Shown piece after piece: positions 7,102-34,232 of a DNA stretch of 64,000 bases. This DNA is from Podarcis melisellensis (lineage: Eukaryota): NCBI GenBank assembly GCA_964234715.1, contig OZ174290.1, one strand, 5' to 3'. The position numbers and the translations under genes are program-made. Within the stretch, counting starts at the first letter, position 1, and every line of letters begins with the position of its first letter. The notes beneath the pieces are model-generated. The model was not told where the DNA came from, made no database searches, and was given only the letters and a program-made list of their open reading frames with translations.

Positions 7102-7517
7102 TGTCAGGGAACTGCCATCAGTGCCGGAGGGAGAGAGCAAAATCCAGAGGGATTCCAGAGAGCGTCCCGGGATTGGGAGAGGCAGCCCATCTTCTGGGGA
7201 AGAGAATCAGCGTAGCACCAGTGGAGAAGGGGGGCAGATGGGGAAGCGGCGAGGTGGTCCCATGACTCCTTGCCGGGGACCAGCGGGGAGAGTAGGGGTC
7301 CTCCGCTGCCTACGCCCTCCTTGCGCAGAAGGCTTTTGCGCAGAGAGAGTAGGAGGAGACTAGGCGTCAAAGAGTTTCTTTGCTGGAAGAAGTTTAAGAA
7401 ACGCCCACTGACGGATTCTGCCAGCGATTGAGACAGCCACGGGTGAGTGGCTGTCCGGACAGAAAAGGTTCACTCAGGCAACCGGCTTACGCACGAGCAA
7501 CCCCTAGAACCATTACA
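7102..7517 (+). mobile_element. Solo LTR (probably Ty3/Gypsy type)
   Basis: TGTCAGG...ATTACA termini; perfect 5-bp TSD GTGTC at 7097-7101 and 7518-7522; homologous to 17746-18172. Confidence 0.9.
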
Positions 7518-7859
7518 GTGTCTAAACATTGTGCTGCTGCATATAAAAAACCCCAGGGGTTAATTTTTGCAAACCTACAGTTTTGTTTTCTATGCCTGGC
7601 ATTCTATAGTACGATACAGTTATTAGTAATTATACTGTTATGGTTTTCTATTATGTTTTGTTTGGTATTCTTTTATATATGGGTATGAAGTTTCTTTTTG
7701 AATAATTGATTGTGGTCCCTTCCAACTATACAATTCTTTGAATCTATGATTCCGTGTCACTGACCATAGTAAAGAGATCGATTGACTGAATAAGTTGAAT
7801 CAGAATCAGAATAAAATGGGAGGATTCCTATTTCATCATGTCCTGTATAGGAACAAAAC

Positions 7860-8480
7860 AAGCGCTGGTTTTGACATACAAAGCCTTAAACAGCTGAGGA
7901 CCTCAATACCTCAAAGACCAACTCTCTCCATATGAAACTACCTGGACCTTGAGATTATCATCTGAGGTCCTTCTTCATGTGCCTCCTCCATAAGAGGTCT
8001 GGAGGTTGGCAACATGAGAACAGGTCTTTTCTGCAGTAGCTCCCCATTAGGCCTTTGTGTGATTAACTTTCTATACCCTTTAAAATATGTTCGTGTGAGA
8101 GGGAGAAGAATTATTGGTTTGTTTTGTTCTTATTAGATGCTCTCATACCTTGGAAGTTGAACTGAATCCATTCCGGAAGTCCGTTTGACTTCCAAAATGT
8201 TCGGATACCAAGGTGTGGATTCCGATTGGCTGCAGGAAGCTCCTGCAGCCAATCGGAACCCACGGAACCTGCATCGGATGTTCGGGTTCCAAAAAACGTT
8301 TGCAAACTGGAACACTCACTTCTGGGTTTGCGGCATTCAGGAGCCAAAACGTTCGATTCACAAGGCGTTCAACTTCTGAGGTGCGATTGTATTTAATATT
8401 TCTTATCTTGTCTTTTTATGTTTTGAACCACCCTGAGATCTATGGATGAAGGGCGGTATACAAATTTAATAAAAAAATAA
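7860..8480 (+). mobile_element. L2-type LINE 3' fragment interrupted by a MITE
   Basis: AAAGCCTTAAACAGCTGAGGACCTCAATACCTCAAAGACC... and tail GAAGGGCGGTATACAAATTTAATAAA. Similar tails near 43070-43250 and 55500-55655. Confidence 0.62.
8139..8389. mobile_element. Tigger-like MITE with internal palindrome
   Basis: CATACCTTGGAAGTTGAAC / GTTCAACTTCTGAGGTGCG ends; internal hairpin CCGATTGGCTGCAGGA-agc-TCCTGCAGCCAATCGG. Confidence 0.75.
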
Positions 8481-9266
8481 AATAAAAAAAAGAGAATTCC
8501 AGATGCTTCCCTAGTAATGTATGGATGCAAGGCGGGCAGCTTATTCCTTACTGAAAGCATGATGTCTGGGGAGGAGGGTTAGGGATGGAGCAGGGGGTTC
8601 ATTCTAAGAGTCATCTTTGTAGGACACACATTAATCCAATTGACAGGTTTTCTTCTAGGTTTTAAATACAACCACTTAGATGCTGCTAGTAATGTTAATG
8701 ACAGCAATAATCTTCTTCCCTGAAAGGGACAATAATTGCTGTATGAATAATAATCAATATTTAGCTTCTTCTTAAGAGGATTTCTAAAGGCTTTGCACAT
8801 TTTATTGCACTAAGTGTCGCAAAAGTATTAGACCCATTTTATGAGTCGCAGGAGAGTGGGGGAGGAGAGGAGGACTTAACCAAGGCAGGAAAGCAAGCTG
8901 AGCAAAAATCAAGAAGCAATTCCATGGTAGAGCAAGGCTCAGCAGAAACCCTTTCCCTATGTTCTCCTTCTGGGTAACAGAATCGACTACTGAGGCAACA
9001 GAGAGAACGTAAGGAGCACTCACACTTTACATTGTGGGTGCCCTTTGGGCGTGGAGCTACAGTTCCCAGGGAGCTTACTGGCAAAGAGGGGCTGGCTTGC
9101 CTCTCAGTACTAATTTTTGGAGTTTCACACCCAGCCTCAGTAATCAAGTTTCTTGCTGGGAGGTGGGGCCAGTCCCAGTTTAAAAAGGTAGTGGAGCCGA
9201 CAACAGACAGGCAGCCAGCTCTGGAGATTCACCCTCCCTACTCTCCCTTTGTTTAATGTTTTCCAG

Positions 9267-9848
9267 TTTGCAGGTTAACTTTTTCGTCCTGTTTAGCTGG
9301 TGCTGCTACGGTCTTTGACTGGTTGCTGCTGAAGGACCGGGAAGAAATTTTCCTGCGTTGGCAGGTTTTGTCTTCCCTGTAGTAATTAGTCACAACTTTG
9401 GTGGTTTATGGCCTTGGGTGGAATCCTTTAGTCTTTTCTTCCCTATAATGGTGGGGGCATGAAGTGGTGACTCACCCCCCTGTGGCGGCGATTCCAGGGT
9501 CCCTCTCTTAAAGGGGTTATATATATGGATGTCATCAGCCATACACTGGAAGGCTGTCAGTGAACTACCCTACATGGTGCGATATGGGATTGGTTGCCTG
9601 CTACACATACGTCTCGCAGAGCACCCTGATGTTCCCCAGTTCCCCCAGCTGGGGAATACACACCCACCGCCTAAGCCAAGGTCTTCCTACATTCAGAAGT
9701 TTAATAAAGTTGTGGCCTAATTTAATTCCATAACACATTGTCAGAGTCTTTATTCCTTTCCTATGATTTTGTCTTCCCTGTAGCAATTCGTCACAGCTTG
9801 GGCAGTTATGGCCTTGGGTGGAATCCTTTAGTCTTTTCTTCCCTATAT

Positions 9849-9936
<88 letters not shown>

Positions 9937-10311
9937 GGTGACTCACCCCCCTGCAGTGGCGATTCCAGGGTCCCCCTCTTTCTTAATGGGGTTATATATA
10001 TGGGTGTCACTGGCCATACACTGAAAGGTCGTCAGTGAACTACCCTGCGTGCAGGGATATGGGCTTGGCTGTCTGCTACACTTACGTCTCACAGAACACC
10101 CCCATATCCCATTTACCCTGATGAGCCCCAGTTCCTCCCTGGCTTGGGGGCTGTGAGGGATACACGCCCAAGGCCTCAGCCAAGGTCTTTCTACATTCAG
10201 AAGTTTAATAAAGTTGTGGCCTAATTTTAATTCCATATAACGTTGTCAAGAGTCTTTACTCCTTCCTTATGCTCCCTGGGGACTGGGGCTGTCGCCGCCT
10301 GGTCATGCAAT
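9267..10311 (+). mobile_element. Unclassified LTR-like repeat with two tandem units (may extend left to ~8815)
   Basis: 9267-9765 is nearly identical to 15317-15820; a second, more diverged unit starts near 9767; both loci end GGGGCTGTC...GCCTGGTCATGCAATG. Confidence 0.75.
9851..9932. repeat. Compound (TG)n(AG)n microsatellite
   Basis: Read directly from the sequence. Confidence 0.98.
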
Positions 10312-12437
10312 GACTCCACGTGTGTGCTTGCAACCAAAAGGCAAGTCAACAAAATGGACAGCAGGATGACACTGGGATTCACTGCCGCAAGAAATAGTGA
10401 TACCAACTATCTTTAAAAGGGGATTAAACAAATTCATGGAGGATCTTGGCAGGGGCTGGGTGGTCTCCCCCCACCGCCCTCTCTTCACAGAATGTGGCTT
10501 GGCTTATTTTCTGGAGACATCCTAATGCAGCACCATGTTCACACAAACTAAAGTTGGGCAAATATGAGGTTGATCATAGGACCATTTCATCCCATTTTAA
10601 GCATTTTGTGCAGACTTTAAAGAACAACAACCATAAGATGTACATTTTCAATGCTTTTCAGTGCATTCACCCATAAAATAAGCAGAGATTGTAGAAATGC
10701 TTGCTGCACTAAGTTGAATATATATATATATATATATGGGATAGTAAGGGGATGTGCTGGTGTCAGATCAACATCTAAAGCTTAAGAAATTTGATTAGCT
10801 GCCTTATTTCTAGCTGTACTGAGGATTAATTACGTGTATTGCCTGTTGTGCCATAAACCAGCGATTTGTACATGCATGGCAGCAATCTAAACAGTAAAGC
10901 CTTTGGAACGAATCCTCCTTTGAGTCCAGCAACTAGAAGCCAGAGCAGGGAGCTGGATTCCAATCTGTAGGCAAGTTTGGGAACATCTGATTTTGCCGTT
11001 TTTGATGTCAAAAGTGGATCAAACTAATTCCTTCTCCATCCACCACACAGTCAGTGTTTACCAATCTCCGTGCTGGTTCAAACTCCACAACCCCCTCCAG
11101 CAGGTTAGTGATGGGCAGGATTTGGAAATGTGTTGGAAAACACCCCAAGCCTGATAGTCTTACTGTGAAAGGAACTTCTCTTCCCTTCAGCAACCTCTTG
11201 GGTTCAAACGAAGTAACTCTCCTCTTGGGCAACTGAATCCTTCTTCTGCATGCTTATGAAATGGCATGCATTCTGACTGTGGCCAACTCAGAATGGCGCT
11301 GAAGTTTTGAGAGTTCACAAGTTTAAAAAGCCCATGGCGTGCTGTGTAAGATGGCAACTGATCCAAGTGTGGAATATTCCCATCTCCCATACACTGACGC
11401 AACCGCCTTGTTTTCTAAGCTTTTGTTTGATGCCTGCACTGGTCTATTGGATTACCCGGGAGTTAGAAGAAGCTGATAAACAGATAAGAGTCTCCCTCGG
11501 AGAATGAGGCCTGATTACATCTTTCCAAATAAGTGGTTATCATCCCCCAGTTATTCATGCAGCTATGAATTATTGATTGGCTCCCAGCTCATTAAATAGG
11601 AGATCCAAGTAAGGGGGAGGGGAAAATGGGATGAATAGAAATCAGCGGCAGCTCTTAACATCTGTAAGTTGGCGAAATGATGGTAACTCATTACCTCCCT
11701 ATTCAAAGTCCATCAGAGGAGAAGAAGAGAGAGATTGGGAGAGAATGAACAGAACCGTTGTCCATTATCCATTCAACGCAGACACAGGTCTGATTTTTTA
11801 TTGAGAAGCTGTGGCGGTGGAGGCTGGCCTCCTAATTTTTAATCACACACACATAAAAGTTAGCTCTTCCGCTGTTCATTCTGAGTTTCAATTTTTCATA
11901 TACAGTATGTAAAAACTCAGGAGACGTTGCTTCACAAAGCAGTGATCAGGTTAACATTGTGAACATTTGCGCAGGTGGGCAATTCAAGGACAAGATGGCA
12001 AGACCTGACCATTTTCATGTACTAGCAACTGGATCATAACTTCAAAACCCAACATCCTGCAATGTATCTGAGGAGAACAGGCAAGGTTAAGGGGCCACAG
12101 CATTCTGTCCTGGAATGCCTTGCCATGCTGCTTCTTGACCCCCAGGATCTATCCATCTGAGGGGGCAGCCATACTCAGCCAGAGGAATTCACCACTATAT
12201 ACACCAATAATGTTTCATTCAGTTTATGTCAAACTGGAGCTCAGTCTGGGGCTGAACTGTTGCTGAGTGTATCTCCTCAAAATACAGCTTTCACGCTGCA
12301 AACACAGCCTTTTCATTTCTGAAAGCAGGACCAGATGTCTGCAGAGATTTGAATGCTCAAGGCAGGAAACTGAGAATATACAGCAGAGATGGCTAAAATT
12401 ATATCCCACATCTGTCCCCTGCCCCCAATTCAAGATA

Positions 12438-12679
12438 CAGTGGTACCTCGGGTTATATATGCTTCAGGTTACATATGCTTCAGGTTACAGACTCTGCTAA
12501 CCCAGAAATAGTGCTTCAGGTTAAGAACTTTGCTTCAGGTTGAGCACAGAAATCGTGCTCTGGCGGCACGGCAGCATTGGGAGGCCCCATTAGCTAAAGT
12601 GGTGCTTCAGGTTAAGAACAGTTTCAGGTTAACTACAGACCTCCGGAACGAATTAAGTACTTAACCCGAGATGCCACTG
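12438..12679. mobile_element. Tc1/mariner (Tigger/pogo-like) MITE
   Basis: TIR CAGTGGTACCTCGGGTTA; TA on both flanks; repeated CTTCAGGTTA motif. Confidence 0.88.
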
Positions 12680-13864
12680 TACCCCCAAAATTTGTTGTTG
12701 TTTTAATTTTTTTCATTGGCCATGCCCACTTTTGGTAATGGGCTAATGAAGCTCTCATCCCAAAAAAGGTCAGCTAGCCCTGGTATACACTGCAGACCCA
12801 GGACTGAAGACATTGATGATTGGTCATGGGGGTTCTTGCTAGTTTGAGGAATTTGAATTCCTTTTTGAAATGTCTTAATCCAGACCAATTGCTGCTGAAT
12901 TTAGGGATCTATTCAATTTTGCACTTCTCCCAGTGTGGAGATGCCATTCCAGACTGTTTAAACTCAGTTTGTGCTGAAGTTTTTGGTCAGACTTGTTTTC
13001 TAAAAAGTGATTTCACTGGGTGGGGATCAAGTGAAAATGCCCCCAAAGATAATTGTGGTGGTGGGATATATTATCAGAAATATCCTGGAGTGGGGCTATG
13101 CTACCTGCCAGAATAACAACATCCAAAAATTACAAGTTGGGAGAGGTAATTGATTATAGGGCAGAACTGGTCCTGTGCTTTAGAAAGATGTTTTCACTGA
13201 ATATATTTCTTACTACAGCACTGAGAGTTGCCCACTCCAGATAGCAGCTGATCAGCACTGTTATATGTTTATCCCAATATTACTAATTAGTCATTATTAT
13301 TTTATTGCTTTCCGTCATGAAATAGCCAGCTGGACATCACTGATGCCTGAGACATTCTTAATTATTATCTACATTTCTTTTGAATTGCAAGTCATTCCCT
13401 GGAGACAATCCCCTTTTTGAATGCAGAGGCGGGGGAACGAGGAAATGACACCACACAACGAAATCTCCCTCTAATTAATTCCGATTGCTGTCTTCTGCAT
13501 CACATTATCTATCAATTTGTGCAACATGCATTTTCTTTTTAGGGGGGAAAAAAAGTACTAACGAAACTATCCCAGATGCTCATTAATGGAAAATGGCCAC
13601 ATGGCTGCTGGAGTGGAAGCGTATAATATACCGAATCCAACTTTTTCCTCCCTTGCTTGCTTTCAAAGAAGGTGGATAGTTTGGGGAGTTGGTATAATAA
13701 TCAAAACATGTAGTGAATATTCAGTGAATATCCTGGAGCAGGAGTGAGGAACCTGCAGTCCACAAACAGGTTTACCGAAACAGTGAGAACTAGGCCTTAG
13801 TGAGAGTCATGGAGGGCAGTGTTTGAATAAGTACAACCAGTTCATTTCTTCTTTGCCTTTGGAG

Positions 13865-13900
<36 letters not shown>

Positions 13901-14894
13901 GGGAGCCTGCACTTGGAAGCTCCGATCTGGTCACAACACCATGTTTGTGTATTCATGCATTGCCGTGTAGGCTTGTCAACTAGGCATGTTTTCTCTCCAG
14001 GAGACAAGCTGAGATGATGAGGGCACCACCATGGACTTGCTCTGTATCACTGTTCACAGATCCCACCTGTCATCTGCATAAAGTCACTTGCTGTCTTCAA
14101 TTCTTTTAGATGTATGGTTTTCTTCCTTTGGAAAGGCTAAGAGGCTTTCGTTTTGCCAAACTCTACTTTGTCTGATATGTGCAATTCCCAGCATCTTGGG
14201 CCCAGACCTGGCTTCTACTTGATGTAATCTTAATTTATATCATGTACTTCAAGTATGAGTTGACTGGGTACCCGGCAATCCTCTGAAGGATGATGCTGAA
14301 CAGATCTGAAGGAAAGCAGCCGTTTGATCTATATTAAGGACTCTATGTAAATAGGGCTGTTTGGGGGGGCGGGTGTGAGTTCAACAATAAGCTCAGTTTT
14401 CACAATGAGTTTAGCAAAGCAAATAATTAATTAGCTCCTGCACTTCTTTCTGTGAACAGGCACTCGCCTTGACTTTGGAACATCCCATTTACAGTTTAGC
14501 AACTCTCCAGGTGTGACTTCCTTTTGAAGCTGGAATTCAACCTTCACAGTACCCAGGTAAAAGAAGGAACCATCCTTTCCAAAACAGGTGAAAAAGGAAC
14601 AAATGAAAAAAGCAGGGCTCCAGTCCTCCTACAGCTAGTCATAATTCCTAGGGAAATATTTTATTTATATGCCCAGGAATGGCAGGGGTTTACCTATGGG
14701 TGTGGGAGAAATTCAGTGCAGTGAGCCTACCTAATTCACACTTATTGAAATAACACATGAATTTAAACACAGCTGCCCTTCAAAATTTGCAAATCTCTGA
14801 ATTTAGCAGTGTCAGATGCCAGCAAAGTACTGTTTACAAAAACACATATACTAGGATAGAGTGTGCATAAAAATGCACAAATTAGTGAAAATAC

Positions 14895-15136
14895 TAGGGT
14901 TGCCATACATCTGGAATTTCCAGGACATACCCAGAATACTGCAGTGTCCAGGCCAAAATTGGCTAAATGTCTGGGAAAATCTGGATGTATGACAACCGAT
15001 GTCAGCAGTGTCGCTCAAAAATGTCATTTTTAAAAATTTTCTTGTGGTTTTGCCGCAAAAGCTCAACAACTTTGCCAAAAAAAAAAAGCAGCTTAAATCA
15101 GACTGGATTTTCACTTTTTGAAATATGGCAACCCTA
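14895..15136. mobile_element. MITE with TAGGGTTGCCATA TIRs, nested in an older repeat
   Basis: Perfect 13-bp inverted termini; no clear TSD. Confidence 0.75.
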
Positions 15137-15299
15137 AGTTCCATAGAAAGTAGATTATATTGGGGAAAAGTTGTGTAGTGTAGTGAAAACTGCATAAACA
15201 CATGCAATGGTATGTTTATTCAGAGAAATTCACACTAAAATGCTGATGAATTTTAGGAGGATTAAAAAAATAAATCGGCAGGTGTGGAAATCTGAAGAA

Positions 15300-15860
15300 T
15301 GAGTACTCGCACTTTATTTGCAGATTAACTTTTTCTTCCTGTTTAGCTGGTGCTGCTACGGTCTTTGACTGGTTGCTTTTGAAGGACTGGGAAGAAATTT
15401 TCCTGCGTTGGCAGGTTTTGTCTTCCTTGTAGTAATTAGTCACAACTTTGGTGGTTTATGGCCTTAGGTGGAATCCTTTAGTCTTTTCTTCCCTATAATT
15501 GGGGGGGGGGGCATGAAGTGGTGACTCACCCCCCTGTGGCGGCGATTCCAGGGTCCCTCTCTTAAAGGGGTTATATATATGGATGTCATCAGCCATACAC
15601 TGAAAGGCTGTCAGTGAACTACCCTACATGCTGGGATATGGGCTGGGTTGCCTGCTACACATAGGTCTCGCAGAGCACCCTGATGTTCCCCAGTTCCCCC
15701 GGCTGGGGAATACACACCCACCGCCTAAGCCAAGGTCTTCCTACATTAGGAAGTTTAATAAAGTTGTGGCCTAATTTAATTCCACAACACATTGTCAGAG
15801 TCTTTATTCCTTTCCTATGATCCGTGGGGGCTGGGGCTGTCACGGCCTGGTCATGCAATG
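15300..15860 (+). mobile_element. Unclassified LTR-like repeat, single-unit copy
   Basis: Near-identical to 9267-9765 plus the shared 3' end; its first bases GAGTACTCGCACTTTA resemble 9014-9029. Confidence 0.75.
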
Positions 15861-17711
15861 GAATTTAAGATGAGGAACAAGATGTCCAGATGTGTCTACC
15901 TGTATCTCCATGTGGGGGAAACCTCGGATAATAAGCCTGCATCAAAGCCCCAGTTCTACAGCAAGCTTAGCATCATGGTTAAGCCTGCTCTGTGTATCTT
16001 TTCTCTCCTAGCTGCTCTGGTGCCATTTCTCAGCCTTCCTGCAAAAGCTTCTGACTCACTCTTGCATGTGATAGAGCTCTTTCTTTGCAGTGATTCACTG
16101 AAGGTCATTTGTTTGGAAGATCTCTTGATGGCAATAAAATGTAGCATGTGAGGAACAAAATAATCCATTACTCCTCTCCCAGCTCCCAATGCAATAACCA
16201 GCCCTTGCCTTCATGCAAGATCCCACTGTGCTGTGATATTATGCAAATGAAAAGCATTAGACCAGTTGCATAACATCCATCGCCTCCCTTTCTTTATGAT
16301 TAAAGCTGGTGGTCTGTGGGGGTGATGGATCTCTAGCACTGTTTCCCAAACGGCTGAGAAATAAGGCTCATTATTATTTGAATTAAAAATGAAAGCACAC
16401 ATCACCCTTACGCTGGGAAAGATTTACTTTTAAGAGTGTGTAAGAGGGAAGCCCATCTCTCCTGCAATTCTGCTTGAATCACGTATCTGGGCATGCAGAG
16501 ATGCAATGGGCAGCCTCCTCCAATCCATTGTGTTTATGCATTAGGAGTGATCGATCTGAACGCACCTGAGGTATTGAGACAGGTCGCTTCCAGAATGCCA
16601 CAATTTTGGGGTGGGATTTAATCACATCCCGGCAAATTAAAGCTGAATAAGTCAAGCTGAATTGGGAGTGCTTGAAAAACAAACCTGCTTCCCCCCTCCA
16701 AAGAATGGATTTCTTGCGATAAGGAAAGTGATGGGGGGATACGCTGCAGAGTGTGGGATAGCACTTACCAGGCACAACAACTTCAGCTAATCTCTCCTCA
16801 AACAAATTGAGAGGAATGCTCAATAAGTAGTTAATGTGGTCTAATCTCTACACAAACATATCAGGCTGAAGGCTCATTAAACCAATTGTCTGAAAGTGAC
16901 CACAGAAGAAACATTTGACCACCACACCCCCTGGACCATGGCTAGAAGGAGCAGACTTGTTATTTAGGCCCTTCCATGAGGGTGGAGGGGACAGTTGCAC
17001 ACCCCCCTTCCTGATCAGCCATAACCCACAGTTGCCCAGCTTTCATTTCTGAAAAGGGCAAGTTTCTCATGGTTGTAGAATCTGAGATTTGAGACAAAAT
17101 GCATGGTAGAATTATTTTTATGGGTGTGTGAGAAATCAGCATGCTTTCAGTGTTTTACTTTGGCCCACCGACCCACCCCGGCAAAGTCCTGTGTACGTCC
17201 ATGCTTGCCATTAGAAATGTTGTAGGGCATGGTCTAAGATGCATTAAGCCTGATATGTTTAAGTCCACAAGATGCCTGAAACAGGAGAAAGAAGGAAGTG
17301 GGATGGTTTTGTTCTCTCTAAATAGGCCAGATTCAGTGCTTCATTCACTCCAGGGCCCGACATGGGAGGGAGAAAATGGGTTGGTATGAGGTTTTTGCTA
17401 GAAGTGGGATGGAATCCCACTGCACCCTGTCCCACCTCAGGCTCTGGTTGTGTCAACGATGAAGGAAACAAAATGTAATTTTATTGCATTAAAATATAAG
17501 GGCCAGGTGCTTATCAGTGCTTGCTGCATTCATTGGCCATAATGTGGGAAGATGGGAGGCAAGTTTATATGTCAGCGAGCATTTCAGTAGAATCCTGAGT
17601 GCATACTTTCCTTCATCTCCCCACAATTAATAGAGATCGCCATTGCCACCACCATGATCATACCTGTCTACATTCAGTGTCCAGCATAGAAACAACAGCA
17701 GAAGTTATATT

Positions 17712-18292
17712 CAGTGCTTTTTTCCCTTAAAAAATGTTTAGGGGTTGTCAGGGAACTGACATCGAAGTGGAGGCAGGGCTCCCAAGCGATGCCGGAGAAG
17801 GGCCAAGCAGAGAGAGAGGGGACTCATCGGCTGGGGAAGGAAATCAGCGTAACACCAGGGATAAAGGGGGCGGATGGGGGAATCAGAGAGGGGGCTCCAG
17901 GACTCTTCGCTGGAGACCAGCGGGGAGAGCACAGGTCCTCCGCTACCCACACCCATCCTGCGCAGAAGACTTCAGCGCAGGGAAAGTAGGCGTAGACTTG
18001 GCGTCAAAGAACTTCTTTGCTGGAAGAAGTTCAAGAAACGCCCACTGACGGATTCTGCTAGCGACTGAACAGCCACGAAGTGAAGGGCTGTCCAGCCAGG
18101 AAAGGTTTAACCAGGCTACCTAGCCAGGAGTGGCGGCAACTTACGCACGAGCAACCCCATATAACCATTACAGGGGTAATCTCATTTTCCTAGTCATATT
18201 GAAATACTGCCCCTCAGTGAGGCCAAACCTAGATTCACAAAATGTTTAGGGGTATGTTTACCCCTGTGTCTCCCCAGGAGAAAAAAGCACTG
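17712..18292. mobile_element. hAT-type MITE (CAGTGCTTTTTT TIRs) hosting the solo LTR
   Basis: TIRs CAGTGCTTTTTT / AAAAAAGCACTG; perfect 8-bp TSD GTTATATT at 17704-17711 and 18293-18300. Confidence 0.88.
17746..18172 (+). mobile_element. Solo LTR, same family
   Basis: TGTCAGG...ATTACA termini; perfect 5-bp TSD GGGGT at 17741-17745 and 18173-18177; nested in a hAT-type MITE. Confidence 0.9.
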
Positions 18293-18757
18293 GTTATATT
18301 GTATTTTATGGTGGTGAACACCATGAAGAAATAAAAGTATTCAAGCAAAACTGCTTGGCTACTGACTTCTTCAGCCATCGTGAAGTGAATGCAGGTGCAG
18401 AACATATGCTGAAAGGATGAGGCCTAGAATGTCTCCTCATCCTAGCTATGATCCTGAGAAAGAGATAAGAGGAGTCCTCGGGAAGCCTCTTTGGGGAGTG
18501 GATAACAGGACTGCCAGAGCCTTTAATGATTTCATTCACACACTTTCCAGAATACATGCTGGGTAAAAGATTCCCTTCCGACACAACAGTTCTATGATAA
18601 TATGATTAGAGTGGTCTATAGAATTACTTGCCTAGTCGATATTTAGTACCTGGACTTCATACGTTTTTTACGGAATTTTAGTTGAATTTGTCAATGGTAT
18701 TTTTGTGTGTGTGTGTGTTTGCATGTCACTTGAAGAACGTTGGATAGCAAGTGACTA

Positions 18758-18758
<1 letters not shown>

Positions 18759-18813
<55 letters not shown>

Positions 18814-20458: not shown

Positions 20459-20475
20459 TATACAGGTCTCCCAGC

Positions 20476-23819: not shown

Positions 23820-24025
23820 AGTGAGGAGGTTACAGTGTTGGGCCAGGACCTTGGAAACCAGAGTTCAAATCCTCACTCAGCCATGAAGCTGAGTGGGCCA
23901 GTCACCATCTCTCAGCCTAACCCACCTCCCAGAGTTCTTGTGAGGGTAGTCTGGAGAGGGCAGGGAGAGAGCCATGTATGCCACTTCAAGCTCCTTAGAA
24001 GGAAGGTCAGCTAGAAATGTAATAC
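23820..24025 (+). mobile_element. Old tRNA-derived SINE (Squam3/CORE-like)
   Basis: B-box GAGTTCAAATCC followed by TCTCTCAGCCTAACCCACCTC...TTGTGAGG core; decayed. Confidence 0.65.
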
Positions 24026-24537
24026 TAAAAGCAACACACACAAAAGCAAGAGATGATGTAGGGGGCAGGACTAAAAGTCTGTACTTGAACATACACTATG
24101 GTACATAGGTTTACTGATTCACTAGAAACATGTCAGGATCCTATTCACTACAGAGACATGGGAAGACCTCTTCCAAAAACCTTGAGGAACCCGCTGCAGT
24201 GCAAAGCCAGTCTGAAGAGCCCCTTCCTAGGCACTCATGACCCTATCCCAAGCCTGGCCTTGATCCTTGATTCTTTCCCATCACCACCTGGGCTTTGGAA
24301 ATGAAGGCAAGAGTGAACCTAGTGGAGCTTGGGGAAGCACATCTTCCCCTCCCCAAGGTACCATGGCTGTCCCAGCCAGTCTTGTGATGACGGTGAACTT
24401 TTGTTGGTGTGAACTTTCTAAATCTGTGGAGACCCCCTGTGCTCTGCCAGGGTTCTCAATGACTCTCCACAGATACCCAAAGAGTCACATGAGCTGATGG
24501 GGGAGGCTAAATGCACATCACCATATTCTATCCAGTC

Positions 24538-24728
24538 CAGTGGCGTAATGTGTGAGGGGAAAGGGGTGGTTGTCCCGAGTGTAAAATTATTAGGGGCGCA
24601 AAATTTCGCATCTCTATGGCTGTGATCTTCTGGGTGACACTGTTAGGCAGCTGAACGTACTCCATTCATTTCCTTCCCTCCCCCCCTCCGTGTGGCCCCG
24701 GGCACTGGCAACCCATGCTACGCTACTG
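24538..24728. mobile_element. Older hAT-type MITE related to the CAGTGGCGTA family
   Basis: CAGTGGCGTA...TACGCTACTG termini; TATCCAGT on both flanks. Confidence 0.72.
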
Positions 24729-24990
24729 TATCCAGTTGTCTCTTCTCCTGTTTTGACAGCTGAATAGGGATCTAGAAATCTGTTTGTGGTTGACAATCTT
24801 TGAAATTAATATTGCCTTAAGTGTAGGCTAATGGTATTAGGTAGATTCTTCACATCCCCATTTATTTGCCTCACACTGTCTAGTTATTAGAACCAGTGTT
24901 CCGACTTATGATTTGTCAATTAACAGGGTCTTGAGTAATCTGTCTGACTCAAAGATTAAAGATCTGAAATGGTAGCACTTTTGGATGTTT

Positions 24991-26577
24991 GTTGTTGTTG
25001 TTGTTTAGTCGTTTAGTCGTGTCCGACTCTTCGTGACCCCATGGACCAGAGAACGCCAGGCACCTCTGTCCTCTACTGCCTCCCGCAGATTGGTCAAACT
25101 CATGCTGGTAGCCTCGAAAACACTATCCAACCATCTCGTCCTCTGTCGCCCCCTTCTCCTTGTGCCCTCCATCTTTCCCAACATCAGGGTCTTCTCCAGG
25201 GAGTCTTCTCTTCTCATGAGGTGGCCAAAGTACTGGAGCCTCAGCTTCACAATCTGTCCTTCCAGTGAGCACTCAGGGTTGATTTCCTTCAGTATGGAGA
25301 GGTTTGATCTTCTTGCAGTCCATGGGACTCTCAAGAGTCTCCTCCAGCACCATAATTCAAAAGCATCAATTCTTCGGCGATCAGCCTTCTTTATGGTCCA
25401 GCTCTCACTTCCATACATCACTACTGGGAAAACCATAGCTTTAACTATACGAACCTTTGTTGGCAAGGTGATGTTTCTACTTCTCAAGATGCTGTCTAGG
25501 CCTGTCATTGCCCTTCTCCCAAGAAGCAGGCGTCTTTTAATTTCGTGGCTGCTGTCACCATCTGCAGTGATCATTGAGCCCAAGAAAGTAAAATCTCTCA
25601 CTACCTCCATTTCTTCCCCTTCTATTTGCCAGGAGGTGATGGGACCAGTGGCCATGATCTTCGTTTTTTTGATGTTGAGCTTCAGACCATATTTTGCGCT
25701 CTCCTCTTTCACCCTCATTAAAAGGTTCTTTAATTCCTCCTCACTTTCTGCCATCAAGGTTGTGTCATCTGCATATCTGAGGTTGTTGATATTTCTTCCG
25801 GCAATCTTAATTCCGGCTAGAGATTCATCCAGCCCGGCCTTTCGCATGATGAATTCTGCATATAAGTTAAATAAGCAGGGAGACAAAATACAGCCTTGTC
25901 GTACTCCTTTCCCAATTTTGAACCAATCAGTTGTTCCATATCCAGTTCTAACTGTAGCTTCTTGTCCCACATAGAGATTTCTCAGGAGACAGATGAGGTG
26001 ATCTGGCACTCCCATTTCTTTAAGAACTTGCCATAGTTTGCCGTGGTCGACACAGTCAAAGGCTTTTGCATAGTCAATGAAGCAGAAGTAGATGTCTTTC
26101 TGGAACTCTCTAGCTTTCTCCATAATCCAGCGCATGTTTGCAATTTGGTCTCTGGTTCCTCTGCCTCTTCTAAATCCAGCTTGCACTTCTGGGAGTTCTC
26201 GGTCCACATACTGCTTGAGCCTTCCTTGTAGAATTTTAAGCATAACCTTGCCAGCGTGTGAAATGAGTGCAATTGTGCGGTAGTTGGAGCATTCTTTGGC
26301 ACTGCCCTTCTTTGGGATTGGGATGTAGACTGATCTTCTCCAATCTTCTGGCCACTGCTGAGTTTTCCAAACTTGCTGGCATATTGAGTGTAGCACCTTA
26401 ACAGCATCATCTTTTAAAATTTTAAATAGTTCAGCTGGAATACCGTCACTTCCACTGGCCTTGTTATTTGCAGTGCTTTCTAAGGCCCATTTGACTTCAC
26501 TCTCCAGGATGTCTGGCTCAAGGTCAGCAACCACTCTACCTGGGGTATACGGGACATCCATTTCTTTCTGGTATAAT
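24991..26577 (-). mobile_element. Bov-B (RTE-clade) LINE, 5'-truncated, young copy
   Basis: Uninterrupted RT ORF; 3' end ...GACACGACTAAACGACTAAAC followed by a (CAA)n tail on the minus strand; ~12-bp TSD TTTTGGATGTTT at 24979-24990 and 26578-26589. Confidence 0.97.
25005..26561 (-). CDS. Bov-B ORF, C-terminal part (reverse transcriptase domain; endonuclease lost by 5' truncation)
   Basis: 518 aa without stops; RT motifs NYRTIALISH, QAGFRRGRGTRDQI, FIDYAKAFD, GVRQGCILSP, LRYADD; Bov-B-type C-terminus LEKTLMLGKMEG...HGVTKSRTRLND. The start Met is an artefact of truncation. Confidence 0.93.
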   Translation of the reverse strand: MDVPYTPGRVVADLEPDILESEVKWALESTANNKASGSDGIPAELFKILKDDAVKVLHSICQQVWKTQQWPEDWRRSVYIPIPKKGSAKECSNYRTIALISHAGKVMLKILQGRLKQYVDRELPEVQAGFRRGRGTRDQIANMRWIMEKAREFQKDIYFCFIDYAKAFDCVDHGKLWQVLKEMGVPDHLICLLRNLYVGQEATVRTGYGTTDWFKIGKGVRQGCILSPCLFNLYAEFIMRKAGLDESLAGIKIAGRNINNLRYADDTTLMAESEEELKNLLMRVKEESAKYGLKLNIKKTKIMATGPITSWQIEGEEMEVVRDFTFLGSMITADGDSSHEIKRRLLLGRRAMTGLDSILRSRNITLPTKVRIVKAMVFPVVMYGSESWTIKKADRRRIDAFELWCWRRLLRVPWTARRSNLSILKEINPECSLEGQIVKLRLQYFGHLMRREDSLEKTLMLGKMEGTRRRGRQRTRWLDSVFEATSMSLTNLREAVEDRGAWRSLVHGVTKSRTRLND

Positions 26578-27518
26578 TTTTGGATGTTTAGGTGGCATTT
26601 ATGGTACCTGGTAGGGGTATGAAACTCTGGAAAACCTGAGAGAGACTCCTTTCCTTTCTGCCATGTTACATAGAAACTTTTGGTTTGTTTGTTTTGGCTT
26701 TTGATTGAGGAAAGCCCTTGGGCTATGAAAACAAATGGTTTTGTGCAATACTAGTCGAGGTTCCCAGGTGTTAGTTTGGATGAAGATATATAGGAATCAT
26801 CCCTGATTGTCACAGTTCATGAATTCATGACAGCAAATGCCACATGGATTACTTTACAATGGAGAAGTTTCAGACAAAGATAATCTATTGGAAGTGTAGT
26901 CAACATGGTGAAGTCATGGACTATCCCTGACCATTGACCATGCTGGCTGGGGTGATGGGAATAGCAGCCCAAAACATCTGGAGGGCACCAGGTTGGCTAT
27001 CCTTCATCTTACTGGTTGCATGGAGAGACAGGCTGGCTATGGATAAGTTGCTCCAGCAAGACACCATGTTAGATAATTAAAGACAGGGAATTCTCTAACC
27101 CAGCTTGCCTTATTGGGTTTCAGACATCTGTGCTTTTACTTATGATGTGGCAAGATAACCTCAAAATAACATTTCCCCATGATTTTCATTAGGGCCACAA
27201 TCCTGCAAGCATGGAGAATAGGGTACAAAGTGTCTAAAAGAGTGTAGGTGGCTGCTATGCTTAGTGCACCCTAAATGCAACCAGGTAAATAATCTGAACT
27301 GTAAGGTCTCCTGCACTTAAAAAAACAACCCTGGGAGCATCTGGCAGCACAATCCTCTCCCTGGCACAGAGACTACTCTCAGGAGAACCAGGATTGGTGG
27401 ATCTAGATCCAAGCTGCATATGGGGTGAAAATTGAGCTATTAGGTGCTTCTAAGTAAGCAGTTTCATCTTCAGTTTACATCTATTACCTGGCTGCAGTAA
27501 GGCATGTCTAGTACAACA

Positions 27519-27999
27519 TCTTAAAAAGCAGAGACATCACCTTGCCAACAAAGGTCCGTATAGTTAAAGCTATGGTTTTCCCAGCAGTGATGTATGGAAG
27601 CGAGAGCTGGACCATAAAGAAGGCTGATTGCCAAAGAATTGATGCTTTTGAATTATGGTGTTGGAGGAGACTCTTGAGAGTCCCATGGGCTGCAAGAAGA
27701 TCAAACCTCTCCATTCTGAAGGAAATCAGCCCTGAGTGCTCACTGGAAGGACAGATCATGAAGCTGAGGCCACCTCATGAGAAGAGAAGACTTCCTGGAA
27801 AAGACCCTAATGTTGGGAAAGATGGAGGGCACAAGGAGAAGGGGACGACAGAGGACGAGATGGTTGGACAGTGTTCTCGAAGCTACTAACATGAGTTTGA
27901 CCAAACTGCGGGAGGCGTGGAAGACAGGAGGGCCTGGCGTGCTCTGGTCCATGGGGTCACAAAGAGTTGGACACGACTAAACGACTAAACAACACAACA
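27519..27999 (+). mobile_element. Bov-B LINE 3' fragment, frameshifted
   Basis: Highly similar to the 3' end of the 24991-26577 copy (PTKVRIVKAMVFP...); ~14-bp deletion near 27770; CAA-type tail; AGTACAACA duplicated at 27510-27518 and 28000-28008. Confidence 0.95.
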
Positions 28000-28207
28000 A
28001 GTACAACAGTGCATGGCAACAATGTGGAATGGGGGTGAAAGCATTGCAATGGACCTCTCTTTGGATGTCCCTCACACCTGCAGTATGAATGCACTCCTCT
28101 GCATTTCTGGATGCACTCCCTACCTGTGTCTGAAGAATGCTGCTTTCCAGTGGGTCTCCTGAACACAGTGGCAAGTTTTCTTATGGAACTTCACAATGGG
28201 GTAAGCA

Positions 28208-28530
28208 TGAGAACATAAGAAGAGTCTGCTGGATCAGGTCAGTGGCCTATTGAATCCAACATCCTGTTCTCACAGTGGCCAGGCCAGATCCCTAGGCGAA
28301 GCCCACAAGCAGGACCTGAGTGCAGAAGTACTCTCCCCATCTTCATATTCCAGCAATTGGCTGGAATACCTCCAACAGAGGAGGTAGAAGATAGCTGACA
28401 TGGTAAGTAGCCACTGATAGCCTTATCCTCCATGATTTTGTCTAACCCCCTTTGAAAACCATCCAAGTTGGTGGCCACCCCTGCTACTTATGGTAGCAAA
28501 TTCCTAAGTTTAATTATGTGGTGCATGATA
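28208..28530 (-). mobile_element. Old CR1/L2-type LINE tail
   Basis: AGAACATAAGAAGAGTCTGCTGGATCAGG...CATCCTGTTCTCACAGTGGCC. Other copies near 4290-4690, 43600-43870, 44240-44750 and 51140-51940. Confidence 0.7.
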
Positions 28531-30135
28531 GCTTAATGGCACCCATGTCATTTTGAGCAACAAATGGCAGTCCTCCCTGTCCTCAGTTTTTGTTTATTTA
28601 TTAAAAAGATGACTGCTACCCATGGCCAGCTAAGCTATTCAGGCATCTGAGGTGGAAAACCCCACCTGGCAGTAAAACCATAATAGCAACAAATGAAATA
28701 ATTATTTGCTGTCATTTCACGACGCCCCAAGTCAGTTGTCTGAGAGGCAGCTGCCTCATTCTGTCTAATGGAATGGCCGGCCATAAAAACACACTTTTTT
28801 GCTGTGTTTTTTTAAGATGTTTCTGTTGATAGGTGTTGCAAACACTGTGGCTGTCTGAGAAAGAAAGCGAGAAAAGGGAGTCATGTACAGACAACCGCTT
28901 GAATGAATTTGAATGACTGATGGAGAAAAAGATCAGGATAAATGGAGAGAAGGATCTAATTGCACACTTTTTGTGCGTATAGTTTCATCCCAGAAAATCT
29001 CTGCCCGCTGGACCCTGATGCTAAGGAGGAGGGGGAAAATGATCTGATGGTTTTCCATCAACTTTCTTACAAATTGATCCTGAAAGATGTTTTCCTGACA
29101 AGCAGTTTATAGCTCGACAACTGCTAACGCTGTGATATTAAGAAGCTAAAGGTGTAGCAAAGTTACATACATAATTCATTAACTATATAAGTGCTTTTAC
29201 TGGCTTAAGAAAAAGAAAAATGGAAATGTTGAACTATAAACCAAATGTCTTAAGATGCCAACAGGCCACAGCAACATGGTGAGGTGATGACCACTGACAA
29301 TATCTGCACAAATGATTAATTCAGGGGAAGCGTTGGGCCACACATTTCTCAGTGCAAGCACAGGTTAGTGGAATGTATGGAGAAAACTGCCTACATGACA
29401 AGTAACTGCACATATGAATACTTTGAAAGCATTTTGTATGCCATTGTTCAGTCAAATAAGCCTCCTGGAATGGCTTACAAATGTCAATGATAATACAGTC
29501 CCTGCCCACAGGCTTACAATCAAAAAAGACATGGCACAAAAGGAAAAGGGGCTGAGAGGAAGGAGAAAAAGAAACAAAGTTGCATATGCTGGCTGTTTGT
29601 ATCAGCATTGATGTGCAGGAATTTTAAGTGGTGCCTCGTCCACAACACGTTCGTTTACATCTAAGAGTACTTGGGGACCCATCTCACATCGTTTCATCTG
29701 CACTAGGCATTTAAAGCAGTTTCATACCTCATGAAACAGTCATGGCTTTCCCCAAAGAATCCCTCTTTCCAGGGAACTCTGGGAATTGTAGCTCTGTGAA
29801 GATAGCCTAGGAAAACACATGGTGCAGAACCTTCTCCCACAAGCCTGTAGTTTTTTGAGCTTTTGACTGCCAGAGTATTGTTCTTCTATCAGGTCCCCTC
29901 TATGCCTCATGGATTTCTCCTAGTCTTTCCCTGCAAAACCTACCACTCTGTAACAAGGCACCAAATTGTTAGGAGACTCCTATTCTCCTCTCAGTTCCCA
30001 GGGTGGTTCAACAACCAAATCCCTCTTTACAACTCTGGGAGGAGAATAGGGGTCTCCTAAGAACTCTCAGCACCCTTAAGAAACTACAGCTCCCAGAATT
30101 CTTTGGGGGAAGGCATGACTGTTTAAATTGGTATC

Positions 30136-30490
30136 AAGGTAAAGGATCCCTGGACAGTTAGGTCTAGTCAAATTCAACTATGGGGTGCAGAGCTCATCTC
30201 AGCTTTCAGGCCAAGAGAGCCGGCGTTTGTCTACAGACACCTTTCCAGGTCACGTGGCCAGAATGACTAAACCGCTTCTGGCACAACAGAACACCATGAC
30301 GGAAGCCAGAGCACATGGAAATGCCATTTACCTTCCCGCCGCAGCAGTACCTATTTATCTACTCATGCTGGTATGCTTTCGAACTGCTAGGTTTTCAGGA
30401 GCTGGGACAGAGCAACAGGAGCTCACCCAGTCACGCAGATTCGAACTACTGACCTGAAGAGGCTTGGTGGTTTAGACCACAGTGCCACTG
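30136..30490 (-). mobile_element. Sauria SINE (older, diverged)
   Basis: Same consensus, reverse orientation, with a small deletion in the head. Confidence 0.9.
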
Positions 30491-30926
30491 TGCTTTAAAT
30501 ATATATGAATGTGGCCTATTTTGTTATGAGTTTGTTGCGTATTACTATGCACTGGCGGGAGAGAGGGAGTCTCGGGCACAGGAGCCACCTGCAACCCCCC
30601 AGGCCTCTCTGTCAGATCCTTGGGTCCAGGCCACATACACCCAATGCTCGGATAACCCCGACATACCCCAGAGGAAAACCAGGATGTGTCTTTTGGGGCC
30701 TTGTTCCCGTATGAGTTATGTGACCTGTGTAAGAGCACAGCACCCCAAAACATGCCTCTTTCAGGGATGTGATGCCACAGGAGCCTGGTGACTTGCAAGA
30801 GAGAAAGGTTCCTGAAAACAGGATGTCCCAATTAAATCAGGACAGTTGAGGAGTATGGTCTCTGCTCTGTACTCTGCTCTGCTTTAGTGATTTTACCTTG
30901 AATGTGTCCTTAGCTGTGATAACACC

Positions 30927-31073
30927 CAGTGGCGTAGCGTGGGTTGTCAGCACCCGGGGCAAGGCAAGTAATTTGTGCCACCTAACCCGTGGATTTGCGC
31001 CCCCTAACCCTAACCCCCAGATGTTGTGCCCGGTGCGGCCGGCCCCCCCTGCACCCCCCACGCTACGCCACTG
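30927..31073. mobile_element. 147-bp hAT-type MITE with internal CCCTAA repeats
   Basis: 17-bp TIR CAGTGGCGTAGCGTGGG; perfect 8-bp TSD ATAACACC. Confidence 0.92.
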
Positions 31074-33415
31074 ATAACACCTCCTGTTAACCTAGATGGA
31101 AAGGAGTGTTTGTCTGGCCTCACCCACACCGCTAAGCAGCCCCTGGAACACTGCCGAAGAGGGAATAATAGAATTGTAGGATTGGAAGGGACCCCTGCAA
31201 TGCAGTGCAGAGAATGTGGCCTCAGGCTGAAAATAGCTCTCTGTCCCTGGTATATCAATAATAAAATGAACTCTTATCAGTCCTCTGGTGACCCCCGAGT
31301 TTCTCACAGCATAAATATTAGCAGTATCTTACAAAATGCTACAACTCACACTATCCTCAGTGGGTGCTGCAGGTGGGGATACAGACTGAATAGTAAGGTT
31401 GTGAATTTGCAATGAGAAAAGCGGTTATTTTAAAAAGAACCCAACCTTCCCCCCCCCCTCAGGTCTATTTGGCACATGTCCCAGTATGACTGGATATGGC
31501 TATTAACTGCGTGTGTTGTTCAGGCAGACCCCTTGGGTATCTGCCTCTTCAGCTGGTGAAATAGAGAATGAGCCCATTTCCAATGAATACTAGCTGAAAA
31601 CCCAAAGGTTGAAAGGGGCAACTTTCTCCCCCAGCCACTGCCTTGTTTTCATCTAACTTCCGGTGCAGAATCTGAGACCTGGGGCCTGACTGTGCCCCTT
31701 TATGCCAATGTATCTGCCCTCAGAACTCTCCCCACCCTTCACTGGTCCTGTTTTACACTGCAAAAGCTTTTGCTTGACTGGAATGTGTCCTTGAACTCTG
31801 ATAAGGCCTCTTATTTCTCAGGATGGAGGATAGGTATGTGCTTGTGTGGAGAAACTAGCGTACTGCAGGAAGGTAAAATTTACTTTTGCCTCTGGCCTCA
31901 CACTGGCATATGATTCTTGGAAGCTTGCCCTCAGAAGGAGATGTGACCTTCAGTCTGAAAAAGCTCCCCTACTCCTATTCTAACCTTTTCAAGGGGCAAA
32001 GCAACACCGGGATCTCCTGTCTCCACGCAGCTGAATGTGTCACTCATGCAAGCATCATTCAGGCAGGGCAGAAGACTCTGATTAGAAGGTGTATTTCTGA
32101 AAATGTAGCTTCTATCAATCACTTTCTGTTTCCCACTGCATTGAAAGGAAGAGGTCCAAACAGGGAGGTTTGCTTACACTGGAGATGATTGAGGAATTGG
32201 GATCTTTGCGAATTCTGATGTCAACTGATCTGATTTGCACCTCCCAAATGGAGGTGTGGGTGGGGAAGAAAGTATGCTTCTGTTTTTGCAGTGCATTTCT
32301 TGGCTCAAAAACCATGCCAAAATGTGCTTTGAAATAAAATACTTTTAGAAATGCATACCTTGAGATAAAACACATGCAGATACCAGAATAAAGTGAGAAA
32401 CTATGTCCAAGAAACATAAAGAAACAGGAAGCTGCCTTATACTGAGTCAGCCCATTGATCCATGACACTACAGATGACATTGAATACCAGTCAATGAATA
32501 CCAGACCTCGGAATATCAGTTGCTGGGGAAGAGCAATGGGAGAGGGCTATTGCCCTAATCTGCAAATGTGTGAACTTCCTAGGGCATCTGGTTGGCCACT
32601 ATGGGAATCAAAGTTGCATTGGTTTGATTTAGCAGCACATCCTATGGGTTATGTGAGCTTATTTATATTAATGAAGGAGATCAGCAGCACAAGTAAACAT
32701 ATACTCTGACCAGTTGCCCTGTAGAAGGTTCCAGGGGCAGGCCTGGAAGAAGGCTTCTGCTAGCAATGGCCAGGAGTTTGGAGGCTACCTTCCCCACCCA
32801 GAGATTAAATACGACAGGAAACAATTATATAAGACCAACTGAATCCACATGACAGACAAGGGGACAACATATTACCTGGAGATCCGCAGCTAGGGATCTA
32901 GCTCTCACTTTTGTTTTCCCCCTGTCTTTCTTTTCTTTCTTTCTTTTTCAATCTTCAGGTCTCCGCATTTTCACATCAAAACCCCTCATCAGCATTTTAT
33001 TGTGCATTTCTCCTAATAGACACATTTTTTTACACATTTCCCCCCCAATGCAATGCATTTTTGTATCTTATCTTCACTAATATTTGGATTTTATGCATGT
33101 TTTACCTTACTATATGCATTTTTGTACACACTGCTTGGCTGGAGAACTGCCTTGCAAAATTCAGAGAAGTGTAAATTTCGAAGGACAGCTGTGTTTCAAC
33201 TCACATTGTTTGAAAAAGTGTGAATGAGGTATGTTTGACTTTAAATGCAAAGTGAATCAAATTTCTCTCCCTGAATCCCTATCTGCAGAGGGGACTATGG
33301 GATTACATCCTGAGCAGGTGGGGTAAATGGGGGACTAAGCAGAGACTTCTCCTTTAACAGCAGTGGATCAGCAAAGGGAAATAGATTGCAAACAATCTCT
33401 GAAGAGCAGCCAGGT

Positions 33416-34232
33416 CCACTGAGCCTCTTGGGCTTGCCAATCATAAGGTTGTGTCAGGGGACTGCCATCGGAATAGAGTAGGGAGGCAGAGGGGCCGTTG
33501 GGATACAGAGAGCCTCCGAAACTCCTGAGGAGCAGTTCTTCTTCCAGTGGTGGGAAAAGCCATACCTCCAGTGGAGAAGAGAGGGAAGGGGCCAGCCAAG
33601 CGTGTAAAGCGCTTGAGGATGCTGCTGAGAGCCCTAGCGCCTCACCTTGCCAGGCTGGCCAGGAGGGACGCACGCCACTTCCGTCGCCCAGCTTGCCAGA
33701 GGGTGGAAATGCAAGGAGGGGAGGAGGGGGCCTGGGGTGCCGAAGTTCTTATGTTGGGGGAGAACCCGGAAGGGGCCACTCCCGGATTCTGCAAGTGACT
33801 GAGAGGGACATGAACTATGTAGATCTGCACTGTAAATAGTTTGCACAATAAAACCTGTAAAAGACAGGTCGGAGTCCTGACTGGTTACTCAAGAGCAACC
33901 ACCAGCATCATCTGACATGTTGGCAGTTCGAATCCATGTGACGGGGTGAGCTCCCATTACTCTGTCCCAGCTCCTGCCAACCTAGAAATTTGAAAGCATA
34001 CTGGTGCATGTAGATAAATAGGTACTGCTGCAGCAGGAAGGTAAACAGCGTTTCCATGTGCTCTGGCTTCCGTCATGGTCCTCTGTGCACCAGAAGCAGT
34101 TTAGTCCTGCTGACCACATGACCCGGAAAGCTGTCTGTGGACAAACACCAGTTCCCTTGGCCTGAAAGCGGAGATGAGTGCTTCACCCCATAGTTAAATT
34201 CAACTGGACATAACTGTCTGGAATCCTTTACC
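33416..34232 (+). mobile_element. Sauria SINE interrupted by a solo LTR
   Basis: Head CCACTGAGCCTCTTGGGCTTGCCAATCATAAGGTTG ends at 33451; the SINE resumes at 33918 (TGTTGGCAGTTCGAATCC...) and runs to a CCTTTACC tail. Confidence 0.9.
33452..33917 (+). mobile_element. Solo LTR, divergent relative
   Basis: TGTCAG...CTGACA termini; AATAAA near 33847; TSD GGTTG/TGTTG; splits a Sauria SINE. Confidence 0.87.

Follow-up and report, generated by a model that had tools for sequence, protein, structure and literature searches.

The window analysed here is a stretch of 64,000 nucleotides from the lizard Podarcis melisellensis (contig OZ174290.1 of assembly GCA_964234715.1), and it contains three related repeats on its plus strand, at 7102..7517 (subfamily A, 416 bp), 17746..18172 (subfamily B, 427 bp) and 33452..33917 (subfamily C, 466 bp). 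We propose, with a probability of about 0.7, that these are solo long terminal repeats (LTRs) of a lacertid Ty3/gypsy lineage with a chromodomain, whose Pol protein ends in a tail, predicted to be disordered, that docks on host proteins and guides the integration complex to the nucleus and to chromatin. The peptide encoded by the LTRs, which the original prediction had ascribed either to an extension of Pol/integrase or to an accessory protein, is, judging by its frame in related genomic copies, the last 100-117 residues of the Pol/integrase frame.

The LTR-encoded frame and the end of Pol

The pattern of eight purines followed by the LTR start, i.e. a polypurine tract (PPT) adjoining an LTR, had 1,005 matches in the genome and none in the control. 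In 15 of 20 such PPT-linked loci, most of them from the younger subfamilies E and F, a single frame stayed open all the way from the integrase core up to the stop in the LTR; two others were open from the chromodomain, one carried an in-frame deletion and two were broken. Because one frame runs from the integrase core to the LTR stop, the peptide is read as the end of Pol and not as an accessory gene. The locus L076 exhibited an unbroken frame of 416 aa, going from the end of integrase through SH3_Tf2-1 (E 4e-20) and Chromo (E 1e-9) to the stop in the LTR, and on the sequence P0001 both PF24626 and PF00385, corresponding to a GPY/F module and a chromodomain past the integrase core, were above cut-off. 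The chromodomain also matched HP1. On contig C19, two B-type LTRs 5.4 kb apart enclose gag, protease, reverse transcriptase (RT), RNase H, integrase, GPF and chromodomain; this element is broken within the chromodomain, and its acidic stretch after the chromodomain reads through the PPT into the 3' LTR. Among 30 B-type junction loci, the frame with the Leu-Cys-Trp (LCW) motif was readable in 8 and held the chromodomain in 3 (L076, L079 and L080), most of the 22 unreadable loci being near-identical damaged copies on one contig. The junction of chromodomain, acidic stretch, PPT and LTR was found for subfamily C in a single damaged copy (L106).

The same tail is carried by Pol proteins of P. muralis in UniRef (1,275-1,344 aa) and by two predicted open reading frames (ORFs) from contigs that are 4.4 and 5.1 kb long, all with the domain order protease, RT, RNase H, integrase, SH3 and chromodomain. 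In the same way, Pfam gave the order protease, RT, RNase H and integrase for the Pol of P0033 and P0034, and the loci L071 and L109-L111 also have it. L071, L110 and L111 have paired LTRs differing at 9-13 of 435 bases, a PPT before the 3' LTR and a 5-bp target duplication. The layout of the element is almost certainly integrase core, GPF/SH3, chromodomain, about 100 acidic residues, PPT and the whole putative U3 of the 3' LTR. Of the two options left by the original prediction, it is the extension of Pol that was borne out by the continuous frame in L076, in the 15 PPT-linked loci and in the P. muralis proteins, since Pol reads through the PPT in frame at the start of the 3' LTR.

Other copies with this junction were also noted. 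Despite a large internal deletion, the young copy L150 is still in frame, its RNase H/integrase border being joined to the first of the two FxGF repeats described below; it is possibly a non-autonomous derivative. A LINE at L072:595-5427, whose two long open frames measure 358 and 1,251 aa, is inserted within the acidic tail region just 5' of a B-type 3' LTR. Contigs from four runs guessed to be RNA were short pieces, none of those listed bridging the PPT/LTR junction, and they were unused as evidence.

The three LTRs of the window share the 5' end TGTCAGGG and the 3' end ACA (TGT...ACA termini), and they are solo LTRs because a 5-bp target duplication flanks each of them, GTGTC/GTGTC for A, GGGGT/GGGGT for B and, with one mismatch, GGTTG/TGTTG for C. 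The original prediction was accurate in its LTR coordinates, in the starts VRELPS, VRELTS and VRGLPS, in the shared TGA stop at 7429-7431, 18066-18068 and 33800-33802, in the C-terminal peptides with their synonymous differences and in the copy-specific breaks of the frame. The remnant of the C-terminal Pol frame occupies 7103..7431 in A, with a shift near 7239, 17747..18068 in B, with shifts near 17763 and 17865, and 33453..33802 in C, with a stop at 33474-33476 and a shift near 33696. The announced length of about 110 aa can be refined to 109 aa in A and B and 113-117 aa in C. The conserved last 44 codons lie at 7297..7431 in A, with a Pro-rich part, an Arg cluster, LCW, a Lys cluster and a PLxDS end, and, by the alignment of copies, at 17934..18068 in B. 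In LTR C a possible poly(A) signal, AATAAA, stands 3' of the stop at 33847..33852. LTR C is inserted in an interspersed repeat at 33420-34218, which is present in several copies in the window and is presumably a Sauria SINE.

Among the best genomic matches, the frame starting at base 2 was open to the shared stop in 9/10 A, 27/30 B and 14/30 C copies (one of these 14 with two compensating shifts), and the remaining five frames were open in 0/10 A and 0/29 scored B copies; these copies, which are spread over many chromosomes, were chosen by similarity to the window copies, a choice that favours young ones. The predicted frame is mostly open in A and B in spite of its breaks in the window. On contig C19 we found 34 of the 40 best matches to the B internal junction, with many near-identical damaged copies about 110-130 kb apart; this contig is possibly a repeat refuge with segmental amplification and might belong to the W chromosome. 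A local cluster was also observed at C2:112.4-114.5 Mb, where 11 of the 52 PPT-linked LTR matches listed for C2 fall within about 2 Mb.

The bases just 3' of the 5' LTR contained no tRNA-type primer site. From offset 2-3 past the 5' LTR, three of four B junctions were perfectly complementary over 10-11 nt to the LTR bases that underlie codons 102-106, the fourth having one mismatch and the sole C junction two. In subfamily E the predicted variant letters, which include two compensating changes relative to B, were found in 12/12 junctions, the first four letters being set by the search pattern. Overall, a complement of 10-11 nt was present in 15/17 junctions, compared to at most 9 nt in 70 control flanks. 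By this complementarity the arrangement is self-priming as described for Tf1-type elements (PMC4600332). The 11-nt site is at 18044..18054 in LTR B, from its complementarity to the primer-binding site of full-length elements; LTR A has the same 11 bases at 7407..7417, and the matching position in LTR C is 33778..33788, with two mismatches in a single old 5' junction. The transcript would start at this site, near codon 102, which would place the U3/R border there, let the coding frame fill all of U3 and put the promoter within coding sequence. With the site near codon 102, the own RNA of a solo LTR would hold only the last few codons, and since transcription from a 5' or solo LTR would begin there, the window copies would be non-coding relics.

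Selection and motifs in the Pol tail

The ratio of nonsynonymous to synonymous divergence (dN/dS) was estimated from a DNA-only alignment of 70 natural copies as net divergence between subfamilies. Between A and B it was 0.36 (0.21-0.61) for all 109 codons, the two other sense frames giving about 1 or more over the whole frame. Codons 66-109 had a ratio of 0.06 (confidence interval 0-0.17), compared to 0.64 (0.32-1.34) for codons 1-65; the purifying selection and the conservation at the protein level that had been claimed for the peptide therefore stand for its last 44 codons or so, but not clearly for the first 65. Codons 66-101, upstream of the primer site, gave 0.07 (0-0.20), and the conservation of PLxDS may be partly at the RNA level, the upstream codons still being at 0.07. 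Against C, the synonymous sites of the last 44 codons were saturated, with a proportion of nonsynonymous differences (pN) of 0.29. The differences between the window copies in codons 66-109 fell mostly in third positions (5/2/12, 18/10/25 and 20/9/26 by codon position), and the family-wide indels measured 3 and 18 nt within the frame and 1, 1, 1, 2 and 9 nt past the stop.

The most invariant residues of the LTR-encoded block were L-C-W, G/V and P-L-x-D-S, the basic residues being less so. The Arg cluster was strong in every relative, and the proteins of A, B, C, E and P. muralis matched a bipartite nuclear localisation signal (NLS) pattern with clusters 10-12 residues apart; an NLS reading of the basic clusters is plausible but, on the pattern alone, weak. 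The block formed by Arg cluster, LCW and PLxDS is likely to combine a nuclear-import signal with an embedded or adjoining hydrophobic docking motif. Pfam matched no family on the LTR peptides, and a word-indexed homologue search with the last 72 residues retained 0 of 2,055 candidates among proteins of 228-728 aa. A profile of the last 55 residues gave five matches against 1.84 billion representatives, four of them real-looking (P0035-P0038) and one a spurious repeat protein; in P0037 and P0038 the Arg cluster and L/F-C-W are kept, and so, for the most part, is the P-x-D-S end. We also compared the block with the BET-binding tail of the murine leukaemia virus (MLV) integrase, the consensus of which is W-x7-P-L-K-[IL]-R (PMC4027182), and found that the lineage has W-x6-P-L-x-D-S instead.

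About 210 residues follow the chromodomain, about half of them within the LTR. In 19 copies from three subfamilies, pN was 0.10-0.19 for the chromodomain, 0.14-0.24 for the C-terminal block of the LTR, and 0.11-0.21 and 0.17-0.26 for two FxGF repeats, compared to 0.38-0.43 and 0.24-0.40 for two spacers. In these alignments three short islands of the tail are shown to be under about the same constraint as the chromodomain, with drift in the spacers, and two of the three are 5' of the PPT, i.e. outside the window LTRs. Each FxGF island comprises a short aromatic-rich segment, an acidic linker of 8-9 residues and then FxGF or L/M-x-GF. The linkers carry CK2-type Ser/Thr sites in 7/7 proteins for both repeats; the second repeat is FRGF in 7/7, and the first is FxGF in 2/7 and L/M-x-GF in 5/7. 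Of 20,000 shuffles at most 1 contained two matches to the FxGF pattern, and none of five Pol bodies of about 1,040-1,140 aa did. The tail is predicted to be disordered: in residues 214-416 the predicted local distance difference test (pLDDT) score was mostly below 50, with short helices at 216-219 and 396-400, and a helix was predicted for the first FxGF repeat only. A TND-interacting motif (TIM) consists of a helix, an acidic CK2-phosphorylated linker of 8-16 residues and FxGF, the FxGF mattering most for LEDGF and HRP2 (PMC9987994), and a fly kinase carries the same type of motif (10.1101/624023). The FxGF repeats could bind TND domains of the LEDGF/HRP2 type, which we suggest tentatively, at somewhat less than even odds. 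The PSIP1 exon of the genome was 100% identical to the P. muralis protein across 72 residues.

The aromatic cage of the chromodomain is altered in this lineage, reading N/S/M/H-W-E and not Y-W-Y, so that two of the three aromatic residues are missing. Position 3 was aromatic in 0/54 rows of the lineage and position 1 was Tyr in 2/54, compared to Y-W-Y in 4/4 rows from fish and from a second LTR family, D. Without its cage, the chromodomain probably no longer reads methyl-lysine. Group II chromodomains, which have no cage residues 1 and 3, had been seen only in plants according to PMC3350952 and PMC3605345. Family D, which is nested in an RT gene (L071:2501-3030 and onward; L112-L143), keeps the cage and is without FxGF. 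It also reads through the PPT into the LTR, with an open stretch of 624 aa in L142, and its tail has 120 acidic-then-basic residues, an ATG at LTR base 5 and an RRSARL motif that we take to resemble the nucleosome-binding core of HMGN. The integrase end of the lineage (A/B/E) is 40-45% identical to that of family D and 34-40% to that of a fish element. A homology of the D tail with the A/B/C/E tails was not supported (phmmer below 5 bits); with the integrase ends 40-45% identical and the tails not detectably homologous, LTR-encoded tails may have been gained on two occasions or have diverged too far to be recognised.

Proposed role of the tail and alternatives

The role of the tail is probably one of docking and import. 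In the mechanism that we propose, only the 3' LTR of the full-length RNA would be translated, and integrase would be freed from Pol with the tail still attached. Nuclear entry of the integration complex would be brought about by the basic block encoded by the LTR, the FxGF repeats would tether this complex to readers of the LEDGF/HRP2 type and thereby to transcribed chromatin, and this binding would take over the methyl-lysine reading of the cage-less chromodomain. Recombination between LTRs would then leave solo copies such as those of the window, which would decay. In its widest form, which we hold as a possibility somewhat short of even, the lizard chromovirus would have traded a heterochromatin-reading cage for a tail of 210 residues that mimics the LEDGF/HRP2-binding motif twice, together with an LTR-encoded block for import and docking, and would aim at transcribed gene bodies.

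Several observations weigh against the docking and import reading. The bipartite NLS pattern also appeared in 19-31% of shuffled B, C and E peptides, and P0037 and P0038, two distant relatives, lack its second basic cluster. In subfamily E and in P. muralis the FxGF of the first repeat starts with L or M and not F, the second repeat reads FLRF in the single damaged C copy, and both repeats may come from one duplication; the pattern was widened to F/L/M after inspection, and a single match to it was obtained in 0.9-1.9% of shuffles. The solved LEDGF-TIM fusions were not among the results of sequence and profile searches of the PDB with the FxGF repeats, even at a threshold of E 10, short low-complexity motifs being poorly found in this way. 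The island alignment was protein-guided with saturated synonymous differences, the split at codon 66 was picked after seeing the peptides, many of the 54 chromodomain rows are near-identical copies, and a low pLDDT from an alignment of 10 sequences is a weak proof of disorder. An antisense frame sharing third positions with the Pol frame also gave a dN/dS of 0.11 and was stop-free in 23/30 C copies.

It is unlikely, in our judgement, that the tail is a real part of Pol but only an import signal on a flexible spacer, its FxGF and LCW motifs serving particle assembly, stability or another partner. C-terminal NLSs are known in integrases (PMC3605345, PMC7459421), and the ubiquitous Arg cluster, the failure to match TIM structures in the PDB and the imperfect first FxGF of the youngest subfamily would all agree with such a tail. 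The invariance of L-C-W, G/V and P-L-x-D-S rather than of the basic residues points the other way, as do the FxGF repeats, which are constrained like the chromodomain, coincide with the loss of the cage and are lacking in family D, where the cage is present.

HIV nef and mouse mammary tumour virus (MMTV) sag are protein-coding in U3 and are separate genes, and the original prediction had invoked them; the lizard peptide is likewise encoded in U3 but forms the end of Pol. That it should instead be a small, separate accessory protein of this kind, translated from a start of its own or released from Pol by the protease of the element, appears very improbable. A Met is present near codon 46 in A and B (at 24 or 46 in 9/9 A; 26/27 B), and release of the Pol tail by the protease would be compatible with the sequence, but only 4/14 intact C copies have a Met, at scattered places, none is common to the subfamilies and the LTR part of the E frame has none at all; furthermore, the frame is continuous with integrase and the putative transcript start is 3' of nearly the whole of it, at its end. 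Conservation due to signals in DNA or RNA, such as promoter and primer, or to the antisense frame, is highly improbable and largely refuted except for the last few codons: codons 102-106 do overlap the 11-nt primer site and a promoter must sit in U3, yet the low ratio of the codons upstream of the site and the third-position bias of codons 66-109 speak against this reading. The ratio of the antisense frame is expected because it is the shadow of the shared third positions, and this frame has a fixed stop in 10/10 A and 30/30 B copies and no link to an upstream gene. To a co-option of the window LTRs by the host for making the peptide we give a practically negligible chance, all three copies being frame-broken, the within-family pN of 0.02-0.09 with many copy-specific changes being that of neutral decay, and the 109 window ORFs of at least 88 aa having no Pfam match save one RT. 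Exon capture may occur elsewhere, since a P. muralis model of a phospholipid-transporting ATPase (P0010, UniRef A0A670JKR6) ends in 46 residues (1006-1051) that are 91% identical to the LTR peptide, either by exon capture or as a gene-model artefact.

Elsewhere in the window, inverted arms of about 500 bp at 24999-27994 are 90-94% complementary, and they enclose a minus-strand frame of 581 aa that extends into the left one and contains a reverse transcriptase domain (E 2e-40).

Relation to known elements and significance

By its features, the lineage is a Ty3/gypsy chromovirus with Tf1/sushi-type priming; its best PDB match was Ty3 Gag-Pol (E 3e-52). Like the Tf1/sushi chromoviruses (Metaviridae), it has a Gag with CCHC, the order protease, RT, RNase H and integrase, GPF/SH3 and a chromodomain, LTRs with TG...CA ends, a 5-bp target duplication and a primer site complementary to the LTR and not to a tRNA. 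Unlike them, it has about 210 extra residues past the chromodomain, half of them inside the LTR, and the altered cage; the fish relative P0011, in a record marked partial, ends right past the chromodomain. The layout is nevertheless of a known kind because an entry of Pol into the 3' LTR is established in plants: in group A of CRM and in some Tekay/Bingo elements, Pol runs on into the 3' LTR, and this LTR codes for a putative targeting end of integrase (PMC3059260, PMC3605345). These chromoviruses, where the LTR codes for the end of Pol, are the fitting analogy in place of nef and sag, and the lizard lineage shares with them the entry of the frame into the LTR and a cage loss of the group II type. 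It differs in keeping a chromodomain 5' of the PPT besides the LTR block, where CRM has a CR motif in the chromodomain's place, and in being self-priming in a vertebrate host where CRM uses a tRNA-Met primer in plants. That the lineage is itself a CRM is ruled out by the chromodomain upstream of the PPT, the self-priming and the lizard host.

The FxGF islands would resemble the TIM/IBD-binding motifs of JPO2, IWS1, MLL1 and other proteins in their bulky hydrophobic helix, acidic Ser/Thr linker of 8-9 residues, FxGF and predicted disorder, and differ from these cellular motifs in sitting in the integrase of a retrotransposon and in having no profile match to solved complexes. In lentiviral integrases it is a folded surface that binds the same host domain (PMC6382798), and these integrases are the only viral case named in the accessible part of a review of viral mimicry of TND domains (PMC9987994). 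The Ty1 integrase has targeting residues in the linker of its C-terminal bipartite NLS (PMC7459421), and this linker and the MLV integrase tail (PMC4027182) are like the lizard tail in combining an unstructured tail with a short docking motif beside or between basic residues; neither has sequence likeness to it and neither is encoded by an LTR. In a search that misses most subscription journals and Repbase, we found no report of Pol reading into the LTR in vertebrates, and neither the lizard tail nor any retrotransposon with an FxGF motif was described. One survey of LTR structure also covers Sushi LTRs, and the word ORF does not occur in its accessible part (PMC3601003).

In this lizard lineage, an LTR that would be annotated as non-coding is for about three-quarters of its length integrase-coding and under selection. 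Within one genome, about a thousand copies are PPT-linked and solo LTRs are far more numerous, and the ATPase model of P. muralis indicates that LTR-derived basic tails can enter gene models. The islands are short and testable candidate motifs for the choice of insertion sites by vertebrate chromoviruses, with family D as a built-in comparison in the same genome. If the binding to LEDGF is true, the lineage would be, within the literature searched, the first mobile element to use the cellular TIM/FxGF route, and a retrotransposon would have reached the chromatin tether of HIV through the mimicry of a short motif.

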